From Chloroflexota bacterium (GTDB taxonomy: Bacteria; Chloroflexota; Dehalococcoidia; Dehalococcoidales; WRFJ01): a stretch of DNA of 26,765 bases. The notes under the pieces were generated by a model that had not been told where the DNA came from, did no database searches, and saw nothing but the letters and a program-made list of their open reading frames with translations. Positions within the stretch are counted from its first letter, which is position 1; each line of letters starts with the position of its first letter. The position numbers and the translations under genes were made by a program. Of this stretch, positions 6,476 to 26,765 are shown piece by piece. Where the stretch lies: assembly GCA_009778865.1 (NCBI GenBank), contig WRFJ01000001.1, positions 1 to 26,765 of the forward strand. Direction: 5' to 3'.

Positions 6476-7601
6476 TATTGATCCCCCGATTAAATATTGC
6501 GCTAAGCCGCATAAGCTGTAGTCGGTGTATTGAAGAAAGATATTATTTTATACGGATTAAGCTGAACCGACTTCATGTGAGAGCGTATATTATGCTCTAA
6601 GTCATTTTCCGAGCGCGGCATGTAACGATTACCCACTCCGCGCTTTAAGTCACTGTTAAGGTATTCTCCGGGGTTGTACTCTGGTGTATACGGCGGCAAG
6701 TAAAATATCTCCAATCTCGGCTTATGCCTTTTAACCCAAGTGGTCGCTTTTTTACTATGATGCACGCGTAGATTATCTAAAACCAAGAATACTTTCTTTT
6801 CGGTGTCTTTTACTAAGCGGCTAAAGAAATCTATAAGCTTATCTGCATTCATATTGTCTTTGTACAGCATAAAGCGCATTTTGCCACTACTGGAAACTGC
6901 TGATAGCATATTGATTTTCATCTTAATTGACTCAGTTTTTAATACGGGAGTGCGCCCGATAGGCGCATATCCCTTAGCGTAATTAGCAGTGTTCTGTATG
7001 CCGGTTTCGTCACCGAAGAATATTTGGGCGTTTTCTCTCTTGGCTTGCTCTTTTATCCCAGGGAACTCCCGTTCTACCCAATCAACTATCTTTTTAGCAT
7101 CCTGCTTGTAAGCTCGTTTTGCCGGACGTTGAACCGAGAATCCCCAACGCAAAAGATAATAACCCAAGGTGCTTAACGGCATTGACATCTTGTATGTCTG
7201 CTCAATGTACTCAGCTATGTTCTTACGCGTCCACATACAACCCTTTAGACGGAGTTGTTCCGGACTTTTGTCTATAATAACACCCCTAACGGCTCTTTCT
7301 TGTTCTATGGTTAAAACTCGGCTGCTGCCAAGTTTGCGTCCGCGCCTTTGAAGCTTAATCCCGGCAAAACCTTCATCTCTGAATTTCTTGATTGTTGACT
7401 CAACATGTCTTCGGCTTACATCCAATATTTGGGCGGTTTCCGCCCCTGTTTTACCTTGTTTTTTCAGCCTGACAATGTTTTTACGAATCTGAAACTGTTC
7501 TTTCGGGCTTAAATGTTTGGCATCCGTTCTTAATTCTTTTTCCATGTTATAAGTGTATCATTTTTTAATCTATTACGCAATATTTATTCGGTATGTCAAT
7601 A
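6476..7601 (-). mobile_element. IS630-family insertion sequence, apparently intact
   Basis: 26-bp imperfect TIRs including the terminal TA (6476-6501 and 7576-7601; 21/26 identical), TA at both ends, a single transposase ORF. Confidence 0.92.
6502..7545 (-). CDS. IS630-family transposase (HTH + DDE_3)
   Basis: N-terminal HTH and winged-helix (WTRKNI...WGFSVQRPAKRA); catalytic triad in FGDETG, VLDNLRVH and YTPEYNPGEY. Confidence 0.95.
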   Translation of the reverse strand: MEKELRTDAKHLSPKEQFQIRKNIVRLKKQGKTGAETAQILDVSRRHVESTIKKFRDEGFAGIKLQRRGRKLGSSRVLTIEQERAVRGVIIDKSPEQLRLKGCMWTRKNIAEYIEQTYKMSMPLSTLGYYLLRWGFSVQRPAKRAYKQDAKKIVDWVEREFPGIKEQAKRENAQIFFGDETGIQNTANYAKGYAPIGRTPVLKTESIKMKINMLSAVSSSGKMRFMLYKDNMNADKLIDFFSRLVKDTEKKVFLVLDNLRVHHSKKATTWVKRHKPRLEIFYLPPYTPEYNPGEYLNSDLKRGVGNRYMPRSENDLEHNIRSHMKSVQLNPYKIISFFNTPTTAYAA

Positions 7602-19346: not shown

Positions 19347-19595
19347 TTATTCGTCTTCTATACGAGCCTTTTTGGCACGCAACTCTTCTTCGGTTTCTTT
19401 GTGCTCGGGATCTAGGACACAACAGTCTACCGGGCAAATCTCCACACAATGAGGCACATCGGCAGTATCAATGCACTCTATGCAACGGGCGGGGTCAACA
19501 ACATAGATAATTTCTTCTTCAGTTATAGCATTCGTCGGGCATTCGGCAACACAAGCATCACAATTAATACATTCCTCGGTAATTTTATAAGCCAT
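19347..19595 (-). CDS. 2[4Fe-4S] ferredoxin, YfhL/Alvin type
   Basis: CINCDACVAECP and CIEC-x8-CVEICPVDC with a C-terminal helix (ETEEELRAK). Confidence 0.93.
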   Translation of the reverse strand: MAYKITEECINCDACVAECPTNAITEEEIIYVVDPARCIECIDTADVPHCVEICPVDCCVLDPEHKETEEELRAKKARIEDE

Positions 19596-21028: not shown

Positions 21029-24000
21029 ATGATCCAATCAATCACGAGGAGGGATTTCCTGAAAGTCAGCGGTGGTTTCACTGGCTTGTTTGCCACAGCC
21101 GGCCTTCTCGCCAACACTTCGGAACTTTCCGATTTGCGTATGGTAGATCGACGCCCCAAATGGAACAAGGAAACCAAAACTATTTGTCCTTTTGATTCAT
21201 GCAATTGCGGACAAATTTGCTATACTGACGATAAAGGTAATTTGGTAAACATTGAGGGCGATCCGGATAACCCACTGAATAGAGGTGCCGCTTGTGCCAA
21301 GGGCGCCAGCCTTATTGAAGTACACAACGGTTCTGATTTTGGAACGATAAACTCTAATCGTGTACAAAAAGTTAAATATCGTGCCAGCGGTGCTGCCGAC
21401 TGGACCGAGCTTAGCTTTGATGACGCTATCAATAAAATCTCCGATAAGATAAAAGCTACCAGAGATGCTGGTTTTACTACTACTGATAGTAGTGGTAATA
21501 CTGTTAACAGATGTGAATCTATCGCCTGCTTTGGCGGTGCTACACTCTTCAATGAAGAATGTCATATGATATCCAAGGCCATGCGCGCTTTAGGTTTGGT
21601 ATTTATGGACAGCCAAGACAGATACGACAGTGCTGCTGCCGATTTTGCTGTTTGGGCAGCTTTGGGCAACTACGGCTCTTCCAACAATTGGACCGATATC
21701 GCCAATACCAATTGCATCTTGGTTTTTGGCGCTTCGCCAATGGAGTCCTATCCGGCTTGCGTCTCTTATATTACCCATGCTACCGAGCAATGTAATGCCG
21801 CTCTTATATGTGTAGACCCGCGTTTTTCACGCACAGCTGCCAAGGCTGATGTTTACGTACCTATGAGAAACGGTGCTGATTTGGTATTTTTGGGTGGTTT
21901 GATACGTTATATTTTAAACCATATTGAAGAAACTCCAGAGGCTTTTAATATGGAGTATTTAATTAATTACACTAACATTGCAGCACTAGTCAGCTCCGAT
22001 TATAAAGGTCCGGATGATCTTGACGGCCTATTCAGCGGTTACAACAGTATCACTAAAACTTATAATAAATCTACTTGGTCTTTCCAGACCGATAGTTCCG
22101 GTAATATCTTAAAAGACACCTCATTGCAAAATTCCGACTGTGTTTTTCAAATTATGAAAAAACACTACAGCAGATACTCAGTACAAGTGGTTAATGAGAC
22201 TACCGGTGCCGACCCCTCTTTGATAAACGAAACTTATGCTTTGTTTACTGCTACTGGCACATCAGACAAAAGCGGTACTATTATTCACTCCATGGGCGCT
22301 ACTCAACACACTGTGGGAGCTCAGATTATTCACGCTTTCTCTATTATCCAATTGCTTTTGGGCAATATGGGTATGGCCGGCGGCGGTATACATACTATAC
22401 GCGGTGAGGGCAACTCTCAAGGCTCTTCCGACTTTGGTTTAAGTGTTGACTATTTGCCTGGTTATCTCAAAACCCCGATAGCTACCGATAGTAACATAGA
22501 CACTTATATTGCCCGTACAGCCAACGTTGCAGAAGCAGCCACTAAAAAAGCGGCTTTAATATCCTTACTTAAGTCTTGGTTCGGCAATAAAGCTGCGGCC
22601 AATAATGATTTTGCTTTCAACTATCTGCCCAAGATGGATCCAGATAAAAATTATACTGCTGTTAATGTTTTCGAATATATGGCTCAAGATAACAGCGTCC
22701 AAGGTGCTTTGGTCTTTGGTCAAAACCTAGCGGTTTCCTCTATGCACCAAAAATATGTTTTCGCCGGTCTGGATAAGCTTGATTGGCTGGTAGTAGCCGA
22801 TAAATGGGAAAATGAAACCGCATCTTTTTGGAAACGGCCTGGTGCTCCCTATGCAAATATTAAAACAGAAGTTTTCTTAATTCCCACTGCTGCCTCTATG
22901 GAAAAAGATGGCTCCACTACTAACAGCGCCCGCCTTATACAGTGGTCTTATAAAGCTGTTGATGCTCCTGGCGATGCTAAGAGCGAATTTGACATCATTA
23001 AAGCTTTAGTGGGCCAGATTAAGTCTAGATACAGCGGCAGTGCTAATGCTGCTGCCATTAACGACTTAACATGGAATTACACCAATACTCAGGCTGCTTT
23101 AGCCGAAATTAACGGAACAGCTGGCACCAGCCAACTCACTCGTCCCTCACAGCTGCGTGAGGATGGCTCTACAGCTTGCGGAAACTATCAATATATCGGT
23201 GTTTATGTAGGTTCTGCCGGTTTAGATACTTTTGAACAGGACAATATCGGCATGTTCCCCAGTGGTTACGTTGGTAATCGCGCTACCCGCACTTATACTA
23301 AAGACGTAGCTAGCAATGGTGCTAGCAGTTCTTTGGGTCTATATTCTTACTACGGCTATGCTTGGCCGCAAAATCAACGCATTTTAAACAACCGAGCTTC
23401 GGTCAACTTAAGCGGCCGTCCTTTTAACAGTAAAAAAGCTGTTATAAGTTATGAAAACGATACTTGGGTGGGCGATAAAACCACTACCGGTGCTCCTGCT
23501 GAAGAAAGCGGCATATTACCTTTTGTTAATATGTCAGATGGTGTAGCACAAACTTATTGTACTAATTTTGCCGATGGACCGTTGCCAGAACATTACGAGC
23601 CTTGGGAAACTCCCTTAACAACTAACCCCCTTTCTAAACAGCTAAACAATCCTTTACTGTTTGATCTTAAAGGCAATAAAAATCCCAAAGGTTCTTTTAA
23701 TTCTTATCCGATAGTAGCCACTACTTGCCGCACGACCGAGCACAGTATGGACGGTCAGAGCACCCGCAATATGAACTGGCTGGTAGAGATGATGCCCGAA
23801 GCTTTTGTGGAAATATCTAAAGAATTGGCTGCCAGTTTAAATGTAGACAGCGGCGATATGGTAAGAATTACTTCTGCCCGCAACTCAATAACCGTGCGAG
23901 CCATGGTTACCGCCCGCTTAAAACCAATGACCATCTCGGGTCTTGCTACTAAACTAAACATCGTATCTTTGCCTTGGCACTGGGGATTTATGGGAAAAGC

Positions 24001-24103
24001 TACCGGCGGCAGTGCTGCTTCGTTAGCTCCGGCTGTAGCTGATGCCAATGGTTATACTCCTGAATATAAAGCCTTCCTGGTTAAAATAGAGAAGGTGGTA
24101 TAA
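21029..24103 (+). CDS. omeA: Tat-exported FdnG/OmeA-like molybdopterin oxidoreductase catalytic subunit (complex iron-sulfur molybdoenzyme), atypical active site
   Basis: TRRDFLK Tat motif, N-terminal Fe-S region, GATQHTVG, RGEGNSQG, EKDGS.TNSAR..QW, C-terminal RTTEH...PEAFVEIS and PEYKAFLV. RBS aggagg. The symbol is inferred from the operon layout. Confidence 0.88.
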   Translation: MIQSITRRDFLKVSGGFTGLFATAGLLANTSELSDLRMVDRRPKWNKETKTICPFDSCNCGQICYTDDKGNLVNIEGDPDNPLNRGAACAKGASLIEVHNGSDFGTINSNRVQKVKYRASGAADWTELSFDDAINKISDKIKATRDAGFTTTDSSGNTVNRCESIACFGGATLFNEECHMISKAMRALGLVFMDSQDRYDSAAADFAVWAALGNYGSSNNWTDIANTNCILVFGASPMESYPACVSYITHATEQCNAALICVDPRFSRTAAKADVYVPMRNGADLVFLGGLIRYILNHIEETPEAFNMEYLINYTNIAALVSSDYKGPDDLDGLFSGYNSITKTYNKSTWSFQTDSSGNILKDTSLQNSDCVFQIMKKHYSRYSVQVVNETTGADPSLINETYALFTATGTSDKSGTIIHSMGATQHTVGAQIIHAFSIIQLLLGNMGMAGGGIHTIRGEGNSQGSSDFGLSVDYLPGYLKTPIATDSNIDTYIARTANVAEAATKKAALISLLKSWFGNKAAANNDFAFNYLPKMDPDKNYTAVNVFEYMAQDNSVQGALVFGQNLAVSSMHQKYVFAGLDKLDWLVVADKWENETASFWKRPGAPYANIKTEVFLIPTAASMEKDGSTTNSARLIQWSYKAVDAPGDAKSEFDIIKALVGQIKSRYSGSANAAAINDLTWNYTNTQAALAEINGTAGTSQLTRPSQLREDGSTACGNYQYIGVYVGSAGLDTFEQDNIGMFPSGYVGNRATRTYTKDVASNGASSSLGLYSYYGYAWPQNQRILNNRASVNLSGRPFNSKKAVISYENDTWVGDKTTTGAPAEESGILPFVNMSDGVAQTYCTNFADGPLPEHYEPWETPLTTNPLSKQLNNPLLFDLKGNKNPKGSFNSYPIVATTCRTTEHSMDGQSTRNMNWLVEMMPEAFVEISKELAASLNVDSGDMVRITSARNSITVRAMVTARLKPMTISGLATKLNIVSLPWHWGFMGKATGGSAASLAPAVADANGYTPEYKAFLVKIEKVV

Positions 24104-24105
24104 AG

Positions 24106-25314
24106 ATGACCGCTATTAAGAATTTTTTAAACAAAATTAATAACTCCGGTGCCAAAAATATCCCGCTTTTTACCAAATGGAGTATTTTACAGACTATTTT
24201 GGCCGGCGGGGCTTTAGTGGTTATTATTCTTAAGCTGTGTAGCGGCTTAGAGTTAGTTACTAATTTGAACGATGAATGGCCTTGGGGTTTGTGGGTAGCC
24301 TTTGACGTAGGTATTTTAATTGCCACAGCAGCCGCTGGCTTTACTTTGGCAGCTATTGTTTATGTATTCCAAATAGAAAAATTTAAGCCGCTAGTACGGC
24401 CGGCAATTTTGATAGGCACCCTTTTCTACACCATTGCCGCTATTGGTATTGCTGTAGACTTGGGTCGCTCATGGCTGATTGTTCACCCCTTATGGAAATG
24501 GAACCACGAATCCATCATGTTTGAGGTGGGTTGGTGCGTGATGTGTTATTTGACGGTATTGTATTTGGAGTTCTCACATAATCTTTTTGAGAGATTTCAT
24601 CTTAAATTTGCCGAGAAAGTTCATCATGCCGTCTTTATCCCACTGGTTTTTGCTGGTATATGCTTTTCTTTCTTGCATCAGTCTTCTTTGGGTGCTCTTT
24701 TTCTCATCGCCCCTCAACAGCAGCCGTTATGGCATGATCCGGAATCAGGCTATATGTTCTTTGTCTCGGCTATTGCCTTGGGCCTAGCAGTACTGACAAT
24801 ATTCAGTGTGGTTACAGCCAAGGCATGGAAAATGACGCTACGGATGGATATATTACCCAAGATCGGACTGATAGCAGCCTGGGTGCTGCTTGGTTATCTG
24901 GCATTCCGTTTCTTTGGTCTTATCCATACCGGTAATATTTCGGCTTTTGCATTTGACGAATTTGGCTTAATGTTCTTTATAGAAATAGGCATAGGCATGA
25001 TATTACCCATGATCTTGCTGTTCATGCCCAAAATTCGCAAAAATCTTACCGGTTTGTTAACAGCTTCCGGCTTTATTGTGCTGGGCATAGCTGTCAACCG
25101 CTTTATGACTCTTATTGTTTCACACGCCGGGTGGCGACATGCCCCTTATTTCCCGTCCGGTACCGAACTTTTATTTACTTTAGGTCTTATTTGCGGTGCA
25201 ATGCTAGTCTATCGCATTGCAGCTAAATACCTGCCTCTTTATACAGAACACTATAATGGTATTCCTAACGCTACCCAAGAAAATCATCCCGAAGTAGTTT
25301 ACGAAACTAAGTAA
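24106..25314 (+). CDS. omeB: HybB/NrfD-family integral membrane subunit (OmeB-like)
   Basis: TNLNDEWPWGLWVAFD, LVRPA, DLGR, S.MFEV..C and HQSSLGAL; about 10 TM helices. Confidence 0.88.
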   Translation: MTAIKNFLNKINNSGAKNIPLFTKWSILQTILAGGALVVIILKLCSGLELVTNLNDEWPWGLWVAFDVGILIATAAAGFTLAAIVYVFQIEKFKPLVRPAILIGTLFYTIAAIGIAVDLGRSWLIVHPLWKWNHESIMFEVGWCVMCYLTVLYLEFSHNLFERFHLKFAEKVHHAVFIPLVFAGICFSFLHQSSLGALFLIAPQQQPLWHDPESGYMFFVSAIALGLAVLTIFSVVTAKAWKMTLRMDILPKIGLIAAWVLLGYLAFRFFGLIHTGNISAFAFDEFGLMFFIEIGIGMILPMILLFMPKIRKNLTGLLTASGFIVLGIAVNRFMTLIVSHAGWRHAPYFPSGTELLFTLGLICGAMLVYRIAAKYLPLYTEHYNGIPNATQENHPEVVYETK

Positions 25315-26162
25315 TGCAACAGCGTATTGATAAAGCTACCGCTACTCTTAGGAGCTGGGTACAACAAAATAGCGCCTTCAAAGAAGCGGCCGATCTTTAT
25401 CAAGATATATTTGTAATTACAGAGCAGGCTTTATCTAAAATAAAGCCTGCTCTAGTTTTTTCGGCAGAGCTTGTGGCACAAACACTTAATAAGCAAATGC
25501 CCATATTGGCATCCAACCAATCCTTTCCCATAGACCCCAAAGATTTTAGAGATATAACCACGCAAATAGGAGAGGCTTTTAGTAGAGCCTCTCAAAAAGA
25601 ATTCCCTTATCAAAAACTTTTGGCTTTGCCGCAGTTTAGTGATGAGAATCTAGCCAATTTACTGCCTTTGTTGCTGCAAAATCAAACCGATTTTATAGTC
25701 GATTTTGCCCAAAACAGCAGTTACAATCTGGAGGCTGTTTATCTTTATGTACAAAGCATTATAACGCCCTTCGTAACAGCTACAGCCAAACCTTACTACC
25801 AGTCAATACTACAAAAAGGTCATGGTAACGTTTGTCCATTTTGTGGCAGTGCTGCCCGCTACGCCGTGCTTACCAAAAAAAATGGCGGCCGGGAGCTGTT
25901 TTGCGCTTTATGCCACAGCCGCTGGAGCACTTTGCGCATTACTTGTTGCTACTGCGGCAATAGTGATGCCCAAACGCAAAGCATCTTTTATCTTCACAAC
26001 GATGCCGGTCGTCGCGCCGATGTATGTTTTAAGTGCCGTCGTTATATTAAAACCAGTAATGAGCGACTCCTAGGCTATGAAGTCATACCGGAAATAGAAG
26101 ACGTAATTACCATGGAGCTTGATGCTATAGCTACGAAAGAAGGTCTTAGTAAAGAAGGCTAA
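25314..26162 (+). CDS. fdhE: Formate dehydrogenase maturation protein FdhE
   Basis: CPFCGS, CALCHSRW, CCYCGN and CFKCRRYIK Cys pairs; translational coupling (TAATG). Confidence 0.9.
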   Translation: MQQRIDKATATLRSWVQQNSAFKEAADLYQDIFVITEQALSKIKPALVFSAELVAQTLNKQMPILASNQSFPIDPKDFRDITTQIGEAFSRASQKEFPYQKLLALPQFSDENLANLLPLLLQNQTDFIVDFAQNSSYNLEAVYLYVQSIITPFVTATAKPYYQSILQKGHGNVCPFCGSAARYAVLTKKNGGRELFCALCHSRWSTLRITCCYCGNSDAQTQSIFYLHNDAGRRADVCFKCRRYIKTSNERLLGYEVIPEIEDVITMELDAIATKEGLSKEG

Positions 26163-26316: not shown

Positions 26317-26765
26317 ATGTTTAAAAATTTCGGGAATTTTGTTATTAAATTCCGTGTACCTATCATTATTTTTTGGATTGTTTTGGTGGCAGCATCGATA
26401 CTTTTTGCTCCTTCTCTCAGTCAAGGAAAAAATGCCGGACAAAACGAAAGCATATTCTTACCTCCCGACAGTGAATCGGTAACGGCTACCAGATTAATTA
26501 ACGAATATTTCCCATCCAATGAAGAAAGCAAAACTGATAGCTTAACTATTATTTTATTCAATGAAAAAGGCTTGAGCGATGCAAATATAGTTGTTGCTCA
26601 AAGTTTTTATGATTGGCTTATTGGTTCCGGCCCACAGGTAATAGTCTCAATTCAATCTATTTTTAACAATCCAGCTTTAAAAGACCGTTTGTTATCGCCG
26701 GACGGCACCACTATGTTAATGAATATTTACCTGGACAATTCCAGTAAAGAGGCCGTTGATCAAGC
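26317..26765 (+). CDS. MMPL/RND-family transporter, 3'-partial (absent from the ORF track)
   Basis: Open frame from ATG 26317 to the window end: MFKNFGNFVIKFRVPIIIFWIVLVAASILFAPSL...FLPPDSESVTA...LLSPDGTTML, a typical MMPL N-terminus. Confidence 0.82.
   Translation, partial: MFKNFGNFVIKFRVPIIIFWIVLVAASILFAPSLSQGKNAGQNESIFLPPDSESVTATRLINEYFPSNEESKTDSLTIILFNEKGLSDANIVVAQSFYDWLIGSGPQVIVSIQSIFNNPALKDRLLSPDGTTMLMNIYLDNSSKEAVDQ

Follow-up and report, generated by a model that had tools for sequence, protein, structure and literature searches.

An omeA orthologue with Asp-Ser at the selenocysteine/cysteine-histidine position of formate dehydrogenases in an uncultured Dehalococcoidales lineage

We characterized an omeA-type gene (P0001, 1024 residues; 21029..24103, forward strand) in the window, by which we mean the whole 26,765-nucleotide stretch analysed here, contig WRFJ01000001.1 of assembly GCA_009778865.1. 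Its product is a large subunit of the molybdopterin-oxidoreductase family with the fold of formate dehydrogenase N (FDH-N) and FdhA, as indicated by TIGR01553, Pfam, phmmer against the PDB, and an AlphaFold2 model compared by Foldseek, and it carries Asp-Ser where formate dehydrogenases (FDHs) carry selenocysteine (Sec) or Cys followed by His. The gene is the positional and phylogenetic orthologue of omeA of Dehalococcoides mccartyi (CbdbA195 / DET0187), which encodes the large subunit of the organohalide-respiration complex. We think it likely that the protein serves as OmeA in a quinone-independent organohalide-respiration complex of an uncultured Dehalococcoidales family, derived from an FDH, no longer active on formate and retained as a scaffold. 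Its membership in such a complex and its role there would follow by analogy with Dehalococcoides biochemistry (PMC6005880, PMC10772276). The first-pass annotation had singled the gene out as the best candidate for an undescribed system; by position and phylogeny it belongs instead to the known omeA-omeB-fdhE set and is a lineage-specific variant of a known non-catalytic scaffold, not a new kind of system. We found no description of an Asp variant of OmeA in the literature, nor any paper mentioning the sample accessions, and the novelty of the Asp-Ser state is confined to the OmeA family.

The Asp-Ser pair lies in the active-site loop segment (21605..21712), which starts at M193 and contains the motif QDRYDS. 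D200 is encoded by GAC at 21626-21628 and S201 by AGT at 21629-21631, while R458 opens the motif RGEGNSQG (22400..22423), in which Arg458, Glu460 and Gln464 correspond to R441, E443 and Q447 of FdhA. In a phmmer search of all PDB chains, W-FdhA of Desulfovibrio vulgaris ranked first (E ~1e-209), followed by D. gigas FDH and Escherichia coli FdnG. The alignment to D. vulgaris FdhA is ungapped from residue 105 to ~298 and sets Y199-D200-S201 on I191-U192-H193 and R458-G-E-G-N-S-Q on R441-G-E-S-N-V-Q; MAFFT alignments of 120 and 46 homologues put D200, S201 and R458 in the same columns. The initial reading of an ungapped replacement of Sec/Cys-His with the Arg retained is thus borne out by phmmer and both multiple alignments, and the positions it gave for D200, its GAC codon and R458 are exact. 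An AlphaFold2 model built with 50 homologues (mean predicted local distance difference test score 89.5, predicted template modelling score 0.91), which contains no cofactor, confirmed the FDH-type fold, superposing on FdhA structures with template modelling (TM) scores of 0.88-0.94 and root-mean-square deviations of 2.0-2.4 Å, and on E. coli FdnG (1KQF) with 0.87/0.91.

The observation is also independent of any single assembly. An identical protein was called in four independent assemblies (ERZ27257304, ERZ27257295, SRR5215144 and SRR10512951), and QDRYDS recurs in three more proteins of 85, 57 and 53% identity, as well as in a partial contig from JGI (86%). In each of the five clade members whose DNA was retrieved, codon 200 reads GAC, while the codons around it vary synonymously; together with the four assemblies, this contradicts the possibility of a sequence error that had been raised at the outset. 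For the pair formed with the 85% homologue, the ratio of nonsynonymous to synonymous substitution rates (dN/dS) is 0.08, uniform along the gene, showing purifying selection and thus a functional gene. The first-pass annotation had also proposed looking for the motif in metagenomes. A degenerate DNA pattern for D-[SN]-Q-D-R-Y-D-S-A recovered QDRYDS beyond the window, although the real matches among metagenome contigs were limited to the already known P0006 contig and the partial 86% homologue. In genome contigs the same pattern gave five matches, none with tblastn similarity to P0001, which we treated as chance.

Orthology to Dehalococcoides OmeA is supported by synteny, phylogeny and shared sequence changes. 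The closest named relative of P0001 is the protein cluster that holds D. mccartyi OmeA (47% identity), including the CBDB1 entry CAI82443.1. The gene is followed by omeB, encoding an NrfD/HybB-type membrane subunit (P0002, 402 residues; 24106..25314, forward strand; PF03916), and by an fdhE-like accessory gene (P0003, 282 residues; 25314..26162, forward strand) assigned on a weak match to TIGR01562/PF24859; no gene for a four-cluster ferredoxin of the FdnH type is present in this operon of the window. The window and the D. mccartyi contigs have in common the order LeuRS-ProC-(YggT)-CvpA-ferredoxin(-)-CoaD-like(-)-RsmD(-)-omeA-omeB-fdhE, and identities to the D. mccartyi counterparts are 60% for OmeB and 62% for LeuRS. 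The FdhE-like protein is 38-39% identical to the syntenic gene products both in Dehalococcoides and in relatives with a Sec-type FDH. The ferredoxin in this neighbourhood is an 82-residue protein of the 2x[4Fe-4S] type (19347-19595, reverse strand); both the 85% relative and Dehalococcoides have it in the corresponding place upstream of omeA.

We built maximum-likelihood trees of 46 proteins under the LG+G4 model and under the site-heterogeneous C20 posterior mean site frequency model. Under both, the four Asp-Ser proteins group together, and Dehalococcoides OmeA is their sister with 100% support in the Shimodaira-Hasegawa-like approximate likelihood ratio test. The pair is nested within the Sec-containing FDHs of the order. 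This agrees with the initial placement of the protein with Dehalococcoides OmeA and apart from working FDHs. Besides the chromosomal neighbourhood, the omeA-omeB-fdhE operon without a four-cluster gene and the twin-arginine translocation (Tat) signal, the two lineages share an Asp at the second Cys position of the FS0 motif, the loss of both Sec/Cys and His, the change of the FDH motif EHWQ to EHS(M/L), deletion of the W491-W492 loop, and the replacements H81N, H195S, D228N, H241Y, L472S, D653E, F706P and Y787N. Their host genomes are likewise comparable in having many reductive-dehalogenase (rdhA) genes and hupXSL and no detected genes for molybdenum cofactor (Moco) biosynthesis.

The two OmeA lineages nevertheless differ at the former active site. 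D. mccartyi OmeA reads QARLST and GGESN, that is, Ser-Thr with the Arg replaced by Gly, whereas the Asp-Ser clade has Asp-Ser and keeps the Arg. The clade has intact VDPRF and PMRxGxD motifs where D. mccartyi has VDCRL and AARSGSE, an extra Cys58 in the FS0 motif, and the clade-specific changes A197D, Y420H, R435H, N236S and R640S. The window's host (genome GC content ~40%) also belongs to a GTDB family other than that of D. mccartyi. The Ser codon of Dehalococcoides is AGC (locus L049) and lies two changes, via Gly or Asn, from the GAC of the clade, so that a single mutation could not have turned one state into the other.

Comparison with FDHs suggests that formate/CO2 catalysis has clearly been abandoned in the Asp-Ser clade, since residues functional in FdhA are replaced and the tunnel loop is deleted, while the pterin-binding framework has not decayed. 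We mapped the residue roles reported for FdhA (PMC9820355, PMC13080415) onto both OmeA lineages. U192 is replaced by Asp in the clade and Ser in Dehalococcoides, H193 by Ser and Thr, V197 by Asp or Glu (or kept as Val) and by Met, T450 by Ser or Ala and by Ala, and H457 by Asp or Asn and by Asn. W889 has become Ser, Thr or Cys in the clade and Ser in Dehalococcoides, and Q890, which contacts the second molybdopterin guanine dinucleotide (MGD2), has become Met and Leu; in the window these two positions fall in EHSM (residues 904-907; 23738..23749), which stands in place of EHWQ (residue role per PMC9820355). The W491-W492 tunnel loop is deleted in both lineages and E443 and Q447 are kept in both, whereas R441 is kept only in the Asp-Ser clade and is Gly in Dehalococcoides.

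The same picture emerges from the 242 alignment columns that are invariant, with at most one exception, among 28 true FDHs. An FDH that is left out of the set still agrees at a median of 98% of the columns and never at fewer than 88%, compared with 74-81% in the Asp-Ser clade and 84% in Dehalococcoides OmeA. The clade thus has replacements at 19-26% of FDH-invariant positions, whereas the median for real FDHs is 2%. All four Asp-Ser members are changed at 35 columns and OmeA at 39; 21 of these coincide where 5.6 would be expected (P = 5e-11), and 10 of the 21 have changed to the same residue. The missing W491-W492 tunnel loop is among these changes in common. The Asp at the second Cys position of FS0 (C53-x2-D56-x-C58-x-C60 ... 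C89-x-K91; 21185..21301) also occurs in 10 of 28 FDHs of the order with Sec/Cys-His-Arg and therefore predates the loss of Sec. The extra Cys58 is found as well in relatives with all four canonical Cys residues (P0009-P0011 and P0070).

The genomic setting is that of an organohalide-respiring bacterium. The host genome (0.92 Mb in 140 contigs, 76% complete) is the sole member of its GTDB family among the sampled genomes and contains at least 8 rdhA matches. It also carries a NiFe hydrogenase cluster, hupX-hupS-hupL, and a gene for a maturation protease, divided between contigs C54 and C76; the four-cluster partner HupX is thus encoded with the hydrogenase on C54, apart from the omeA operon. 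Among 60 relatives in the order, only two Dehalococcoides genomes (20-22 matches) and G059 (8) are comparably rdhA-rich. No other FDH-like gene was detected in the 76%-complete genome, and tRNA-Sec was not found among its 34 detected tRNAs.

The host also seems to lack the means to synthesize the pterin cofactor. Searches of the 76%-complete genome gave no match for FdhD, MoaC, the N domain of MoeA or the C-domain of MoaA, and we consider it very likely that the cofactor-synthesis genes are truly absent. MoaC is present in 51 of the 61 genomes of the order, the host genome counted, and MoaA in 28 of 31, and both are absent from complete Dehalococcoides genomes (two in the case of MoaC); MoeA, too, is lacking in Dehalococcoides, whereas the Sec-type relatives have it. 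The lack of moaA, moaC and moeA in sequenced Dehalococcoides has been described, along with the retention of these genes and of a Sec-containing FdnG in Dehalogenimonas (PMC13390414). The first-pass view of Asp200 as a metal ligand presumes a Mo- or W-bis(pyranopterin guanine dinucleotide) (bisPGD) cofactor and is at odds with this gene content. If the cofactor cannot be made, Asp200 would not be a metal ligand in the ordinary sense, and because the organism appears unable to make it, Asp200 most likely ligates neither Mo nor W.

These observations would fit the following arrangement, modelled on D. mccartyi, the only organism in which the association of OmeA with HupX, OmeB and RdhA in a membrane complex is known (PMC6005880, PMC3160892). 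There, OmeA has Ser at the site and binds HupX and OmeB tightly, its Mo cofactor is unconfirmed, and Dehalococcoides does not use formate (PMC3160892, PMC6005880, PMC10772276, PMC13390414). The complex in the window's host would comprise HupL/HupS, HupX, OmeA/OmeB and RdhA/RdhB, and its OmeA would descend from a Sec-containing FDH at the same chromosomal locus. Folded and loaded with iron-sulfur clusters, OmeA would be exported to the periplasm by the Tat pathway; its Tat signal region (21029..21148, RRDFLK at residues 7-12) has an N-terminus nearly identical in style to that of Dehalococcoides OmeA, and residues 1-40 are unstructured in the AlphaFold2 model. OmeA would then bind OmeB in the membrane, with HupX occupying the place of FdnH, and electrons would pass from HupLS through HupX to RdhA. 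OmeA itself may act as a scaffold and iron-sulfur hub, offering a docking surface and possibly its FS0 cluster. Asp200-Ser201 would be the state that this lineage fixed at a site freed from FDH constraint, as Dehalococcoides fixed Ser-Thr, and Asp200 would lie in a vestigial cavity, where, more speculatively, it may be paired with Arg458. Of the two roles first proposed, a non-formate substrate or a non-catalytic electron/proton relay, the non-catalytic relay is the better supported.

Several findings weigh against this scaffold interpretation and leave open a site that may still hold metal. The Asp-Ser clade retains Arg458, Glu460, Gln464, VDPRF and PMRxGxD, unlike Dehalococcoides OmeA, QDRYDS is invariant across 53-85% identity, and the Pfam pterin-domain scores lie only slightly under those of real FDHs, although this score does not discriminate. 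Given the retained residues and motifs and the near-FDH domain scores, the pterin pocket may still be occupied, and a framework that has not decayed leaves some room for a metal ligand. The lack of cofactor genes is itself qualified by the 76% completeness of the genome; because moaA, moaC and moeA form one cluster in relatives, a single missing contig could account for it, with a chance of roughly 1 in 4.

On this basis, Mo- or W-bisPGD might still be bound, with the genes on unassembled contigs or the cofactor salvaged, and Asp200 would then truly bind the metal through its carboxylate, as the Asp of NarG and EbdA does. This would support new redox chemistry on the FDH scaffold, for instance with a substrate other than formate or as a tuned electron/proton gate in the dehalogenating complex. 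The preservation of Lys91 alongside the residues and motifs above, better overall than in Dehalococcoides OmeA, is consistent with this, as are the constancy of QDRYDS in every clade member, the dN/dS of 0.08, the maintenance of the FdhE-like gene and pterin domains that score above the Pfam threshold; by comparison with known Asp-Mo enzymes, the geometry could also let an Asp side chain reach a metal bound where Sec sits. We nevertheless regard it as unlikely. MoaA, MoaC, MoeA and FdhD are missing from the 76%-complete host genome, and the sister lineage lacks the first three in complete genomes. The clade has lost His193, W889, the tunnel loop and, with Q890, the contact to MGD2; it departs from FDHs at 19-26% of FDH-invariant positions, where the median for real FDHs is 2%; and the fold is of the FDH type and not that of NarG/EbdA (TM 0.56 to 2ivf). 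Nor is the site itself exceptionally constrained, with 57% of the 21-residue stretch around residue 200 invariant in the clade compared with a mean of 49% (76th percentile). The fullest form of the idea, in which Asp200 is a true Mo/W carboxylate ligand in an FDH-N scaffold and the OmeA module a working redox or proton-coupling site in a quinone-free dehalogenating complex, seems to us quite improbable; if true, a different chemistry would lie behind each of the Sec, Ser and Asp states at this locus.

A second alternative is that the cavity has been rebuilt as a pterin-independent metal or ion site from D197, D200, H420 and H435, to which D205 would be added in the subclade of the window. The FDH-invariant A197 is Asp throughout the clade of four, and Y420 and R435 are both His there, changes that Dehalococcoides OmeA lacks, and the sites lie on segments that flank the FdhA active site (for example, Y403 is two residues from M405). 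The changed positions are, however, no more conserved in the clade than average (17 of 47 invariant against 49% overall), and there is no precedent in this family, which makes a rebuilt site very improbable. That P0001 is an ordinary FDH in which codon 200 is recoded, or reads as Asp only through an error of sequencing or assembly, has a negligible probability, its TIGR01553 score (853 bits, curated cut-off 814) notwithstanding, given the identical protein in four independent assemblies, GAC in five clade members whose adjacent codons differ synonymously, no in-frame stop, the change of His193 and many other FDH-invariant residues, an operon without an FdnH-type gene and no tRNA-Sec found in the genome.

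P0001 exceeds the curated cut-off of TIGR01553, the FDH-N alpha model, which does not test the active site, and contains the Pfam domains PF04879, PF00384 and PF01568. It shares with FdnG of E. coli (1KQF) and W-FdhA of D. vulgaris (6SDR and others) the fold (TM 0.87-0.94), domain order, Tat export, a Lys between FS0 and the pterin site, and the Arg-Gly-Glu-x-Asn-x-Gln motif, and differs from them in having neither Sec/Cys nor the catalytic His, no adjacent FdnH/FdhB gene and a deleted tunnel loop. Of the hallmarks of FDH-N alpha, only the hidden Markov model score is found in P0001; Sec/Cys-His and an FdnH neighbour are missing, as are FdhD and Moco genes in the 76%-complete genome. Of those of OmeA, the ones that can be read from sequence are all found, namely the fold with Tat signal, replacement of ligand and His, the operon, orthology and an rdhA-rich, Hup-bearing host.

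Sec-containing FDH-N-like proteins of other Dehalococcoidales, such as that of G059, are 46-49% identical to P0001, lie at the same rsmD locus next to NrfD-type and FdhE-like genes, and have the FS0 Asp variant, and some of their hosts carry several rdhA genes. Unlike P0001, they keep Sec-His-Arg and all tunnel residues and are found in genomes with moaA, moaC and moeA. FdnG of Dehalogenimonas has been described and formate oxidation reported for that genus (PMC13390414). In G059, which has ~8 rdhA matches together with moaC and moeA, a Sec (TGA) FDH is encoded at rsmD in an OmeA-style operon with NrfD and FdhE-like genes and no beta subunit (locus L016, contig G059:C73, 1495-4662), and this locus likely gives a picture of the ancestral omeA state. 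P0009, placed as sister to the OmeA clade, reads Gly-His-Arg at these positions (EARIGH); because Gly is one base change from TGA, its state is a possible intermediate of ligand loss.

QrcB and ActB (the latter of alternative complex III) are cofactor-less MopB-fold proteins that partner a four-cluster protein and an NrfD-type subunit after the loss of catalysis. They resemble P0001, as interpreted here, in keeping the MopB fold as a structural or electron-transfer partner without catalysis, and they are far more diverged, P0001 scoring 44 bits against the QrcB model (cut-off 440) while still ~43-45% identical to working FDHs. P0010 (Ser-Gln) and P0011 (Asp-Gln), both without the Arg, are encoded in operons of a multihaem cytochrome c, the FDH-like protein, a four-cluster protein and an NrfD-type subunit, an arrangement reminiscent of cofactor-less subunits of the QrcB and ActB type. 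These operons (L065 8001-13019 and L066 8001-13010) lie directly downstream of ccm genes and upstream of radical-SAM and sirohaem/haem genes. The Asp-ligated type II dimethyl sulfoxide reductase (DMSOR) family (NarG, EbdA, SerA, PcrA) shares with P0001 an Asp at the Mo protein-ligand position but forms another clade with another fold variant (TM 0.52-0.56 to EbdA and PcrA), and the metal in P0001 is only putative. Membership of P0001 in the NarG type was rejected on these TM scores and on its scores against TIGR03479 (72 vs 985 bits) and the EbdA model (24 vs 2000).

In a scan of 1.84 billion cluster representatives, the whole Asp-Ser clade falls into one 50% cluster, and the next representative is 42% identical. 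Among the ~76 representatives that cover the site, 23 have Cys-His and the others Ser, Gly, Asp, Thr, Lys, Arg and further residues, Asp occurring in five, although at 30-40% identity pairwise alignment becomes less reliable, and cluster representatives over-represent diverged lineages. The first-pass claim of a new ligand state in the FDH scaffold was therefore overstated. With most of these representatives lacking Cys-His and P0010 and P0011 similarly degenerate, ligand loss appears from the alignments to be a recurring theme in FDH-like scaffolds. A large Chloroflexota/Dehalococcoidia clade of FDH-N-like proteins, accounting for 42 of the top 120 homologues (including P0056, P0061, P0064, P0083, P0093 and P0102), has Cys-Val or Cys-Ile for Cys-His and GAxNGLGC for RGESNVQG, that is, it keeps the Cys and has lost the His and Arg.

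The window bears on the role of OmeA in Dehalococcoides respiration and on its putative Mo cofactor, for it adds a second, independent OmeA lineage, with Asp at the former ligand position, the active-site Arg kept and the pterin-binding motifs better preserved. A third rdhA-bearing lineage has a Sec-containing orthologue at the same locus. The Sec, Ser and Asp states found naturally at this one locus form a series whose members can be contrasted in tests of cofactor content, of assembly and of electron transfer.

A scan for sigma-70 promoters gave promoter-like sites at the rate of shuffled sequence, and terminator-like sites numbered 13 against a shuffle mean of 6.5, most of them within coding sequence. 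Downstream of fdhE (26317-26763 in the window; L042 15289-19926), the window runs into a gene for an MMPL-family transporter, which is 987 residues long on the longer contig. Beyond it are encoded a small Fer4 protein and then an HI0933-like flavoprotein; the Dehalococcoides locus is also flanked by a homologous flavoprotein, but on the other side. Among housekeeping genes, the window contains a DDE_3/HTH transposase (IS630-like; 6502-7545, reverse strand), and a further DDE_Tnp_1 element lies 5 kb downstream of fdhE on longer contigs of the same organism.

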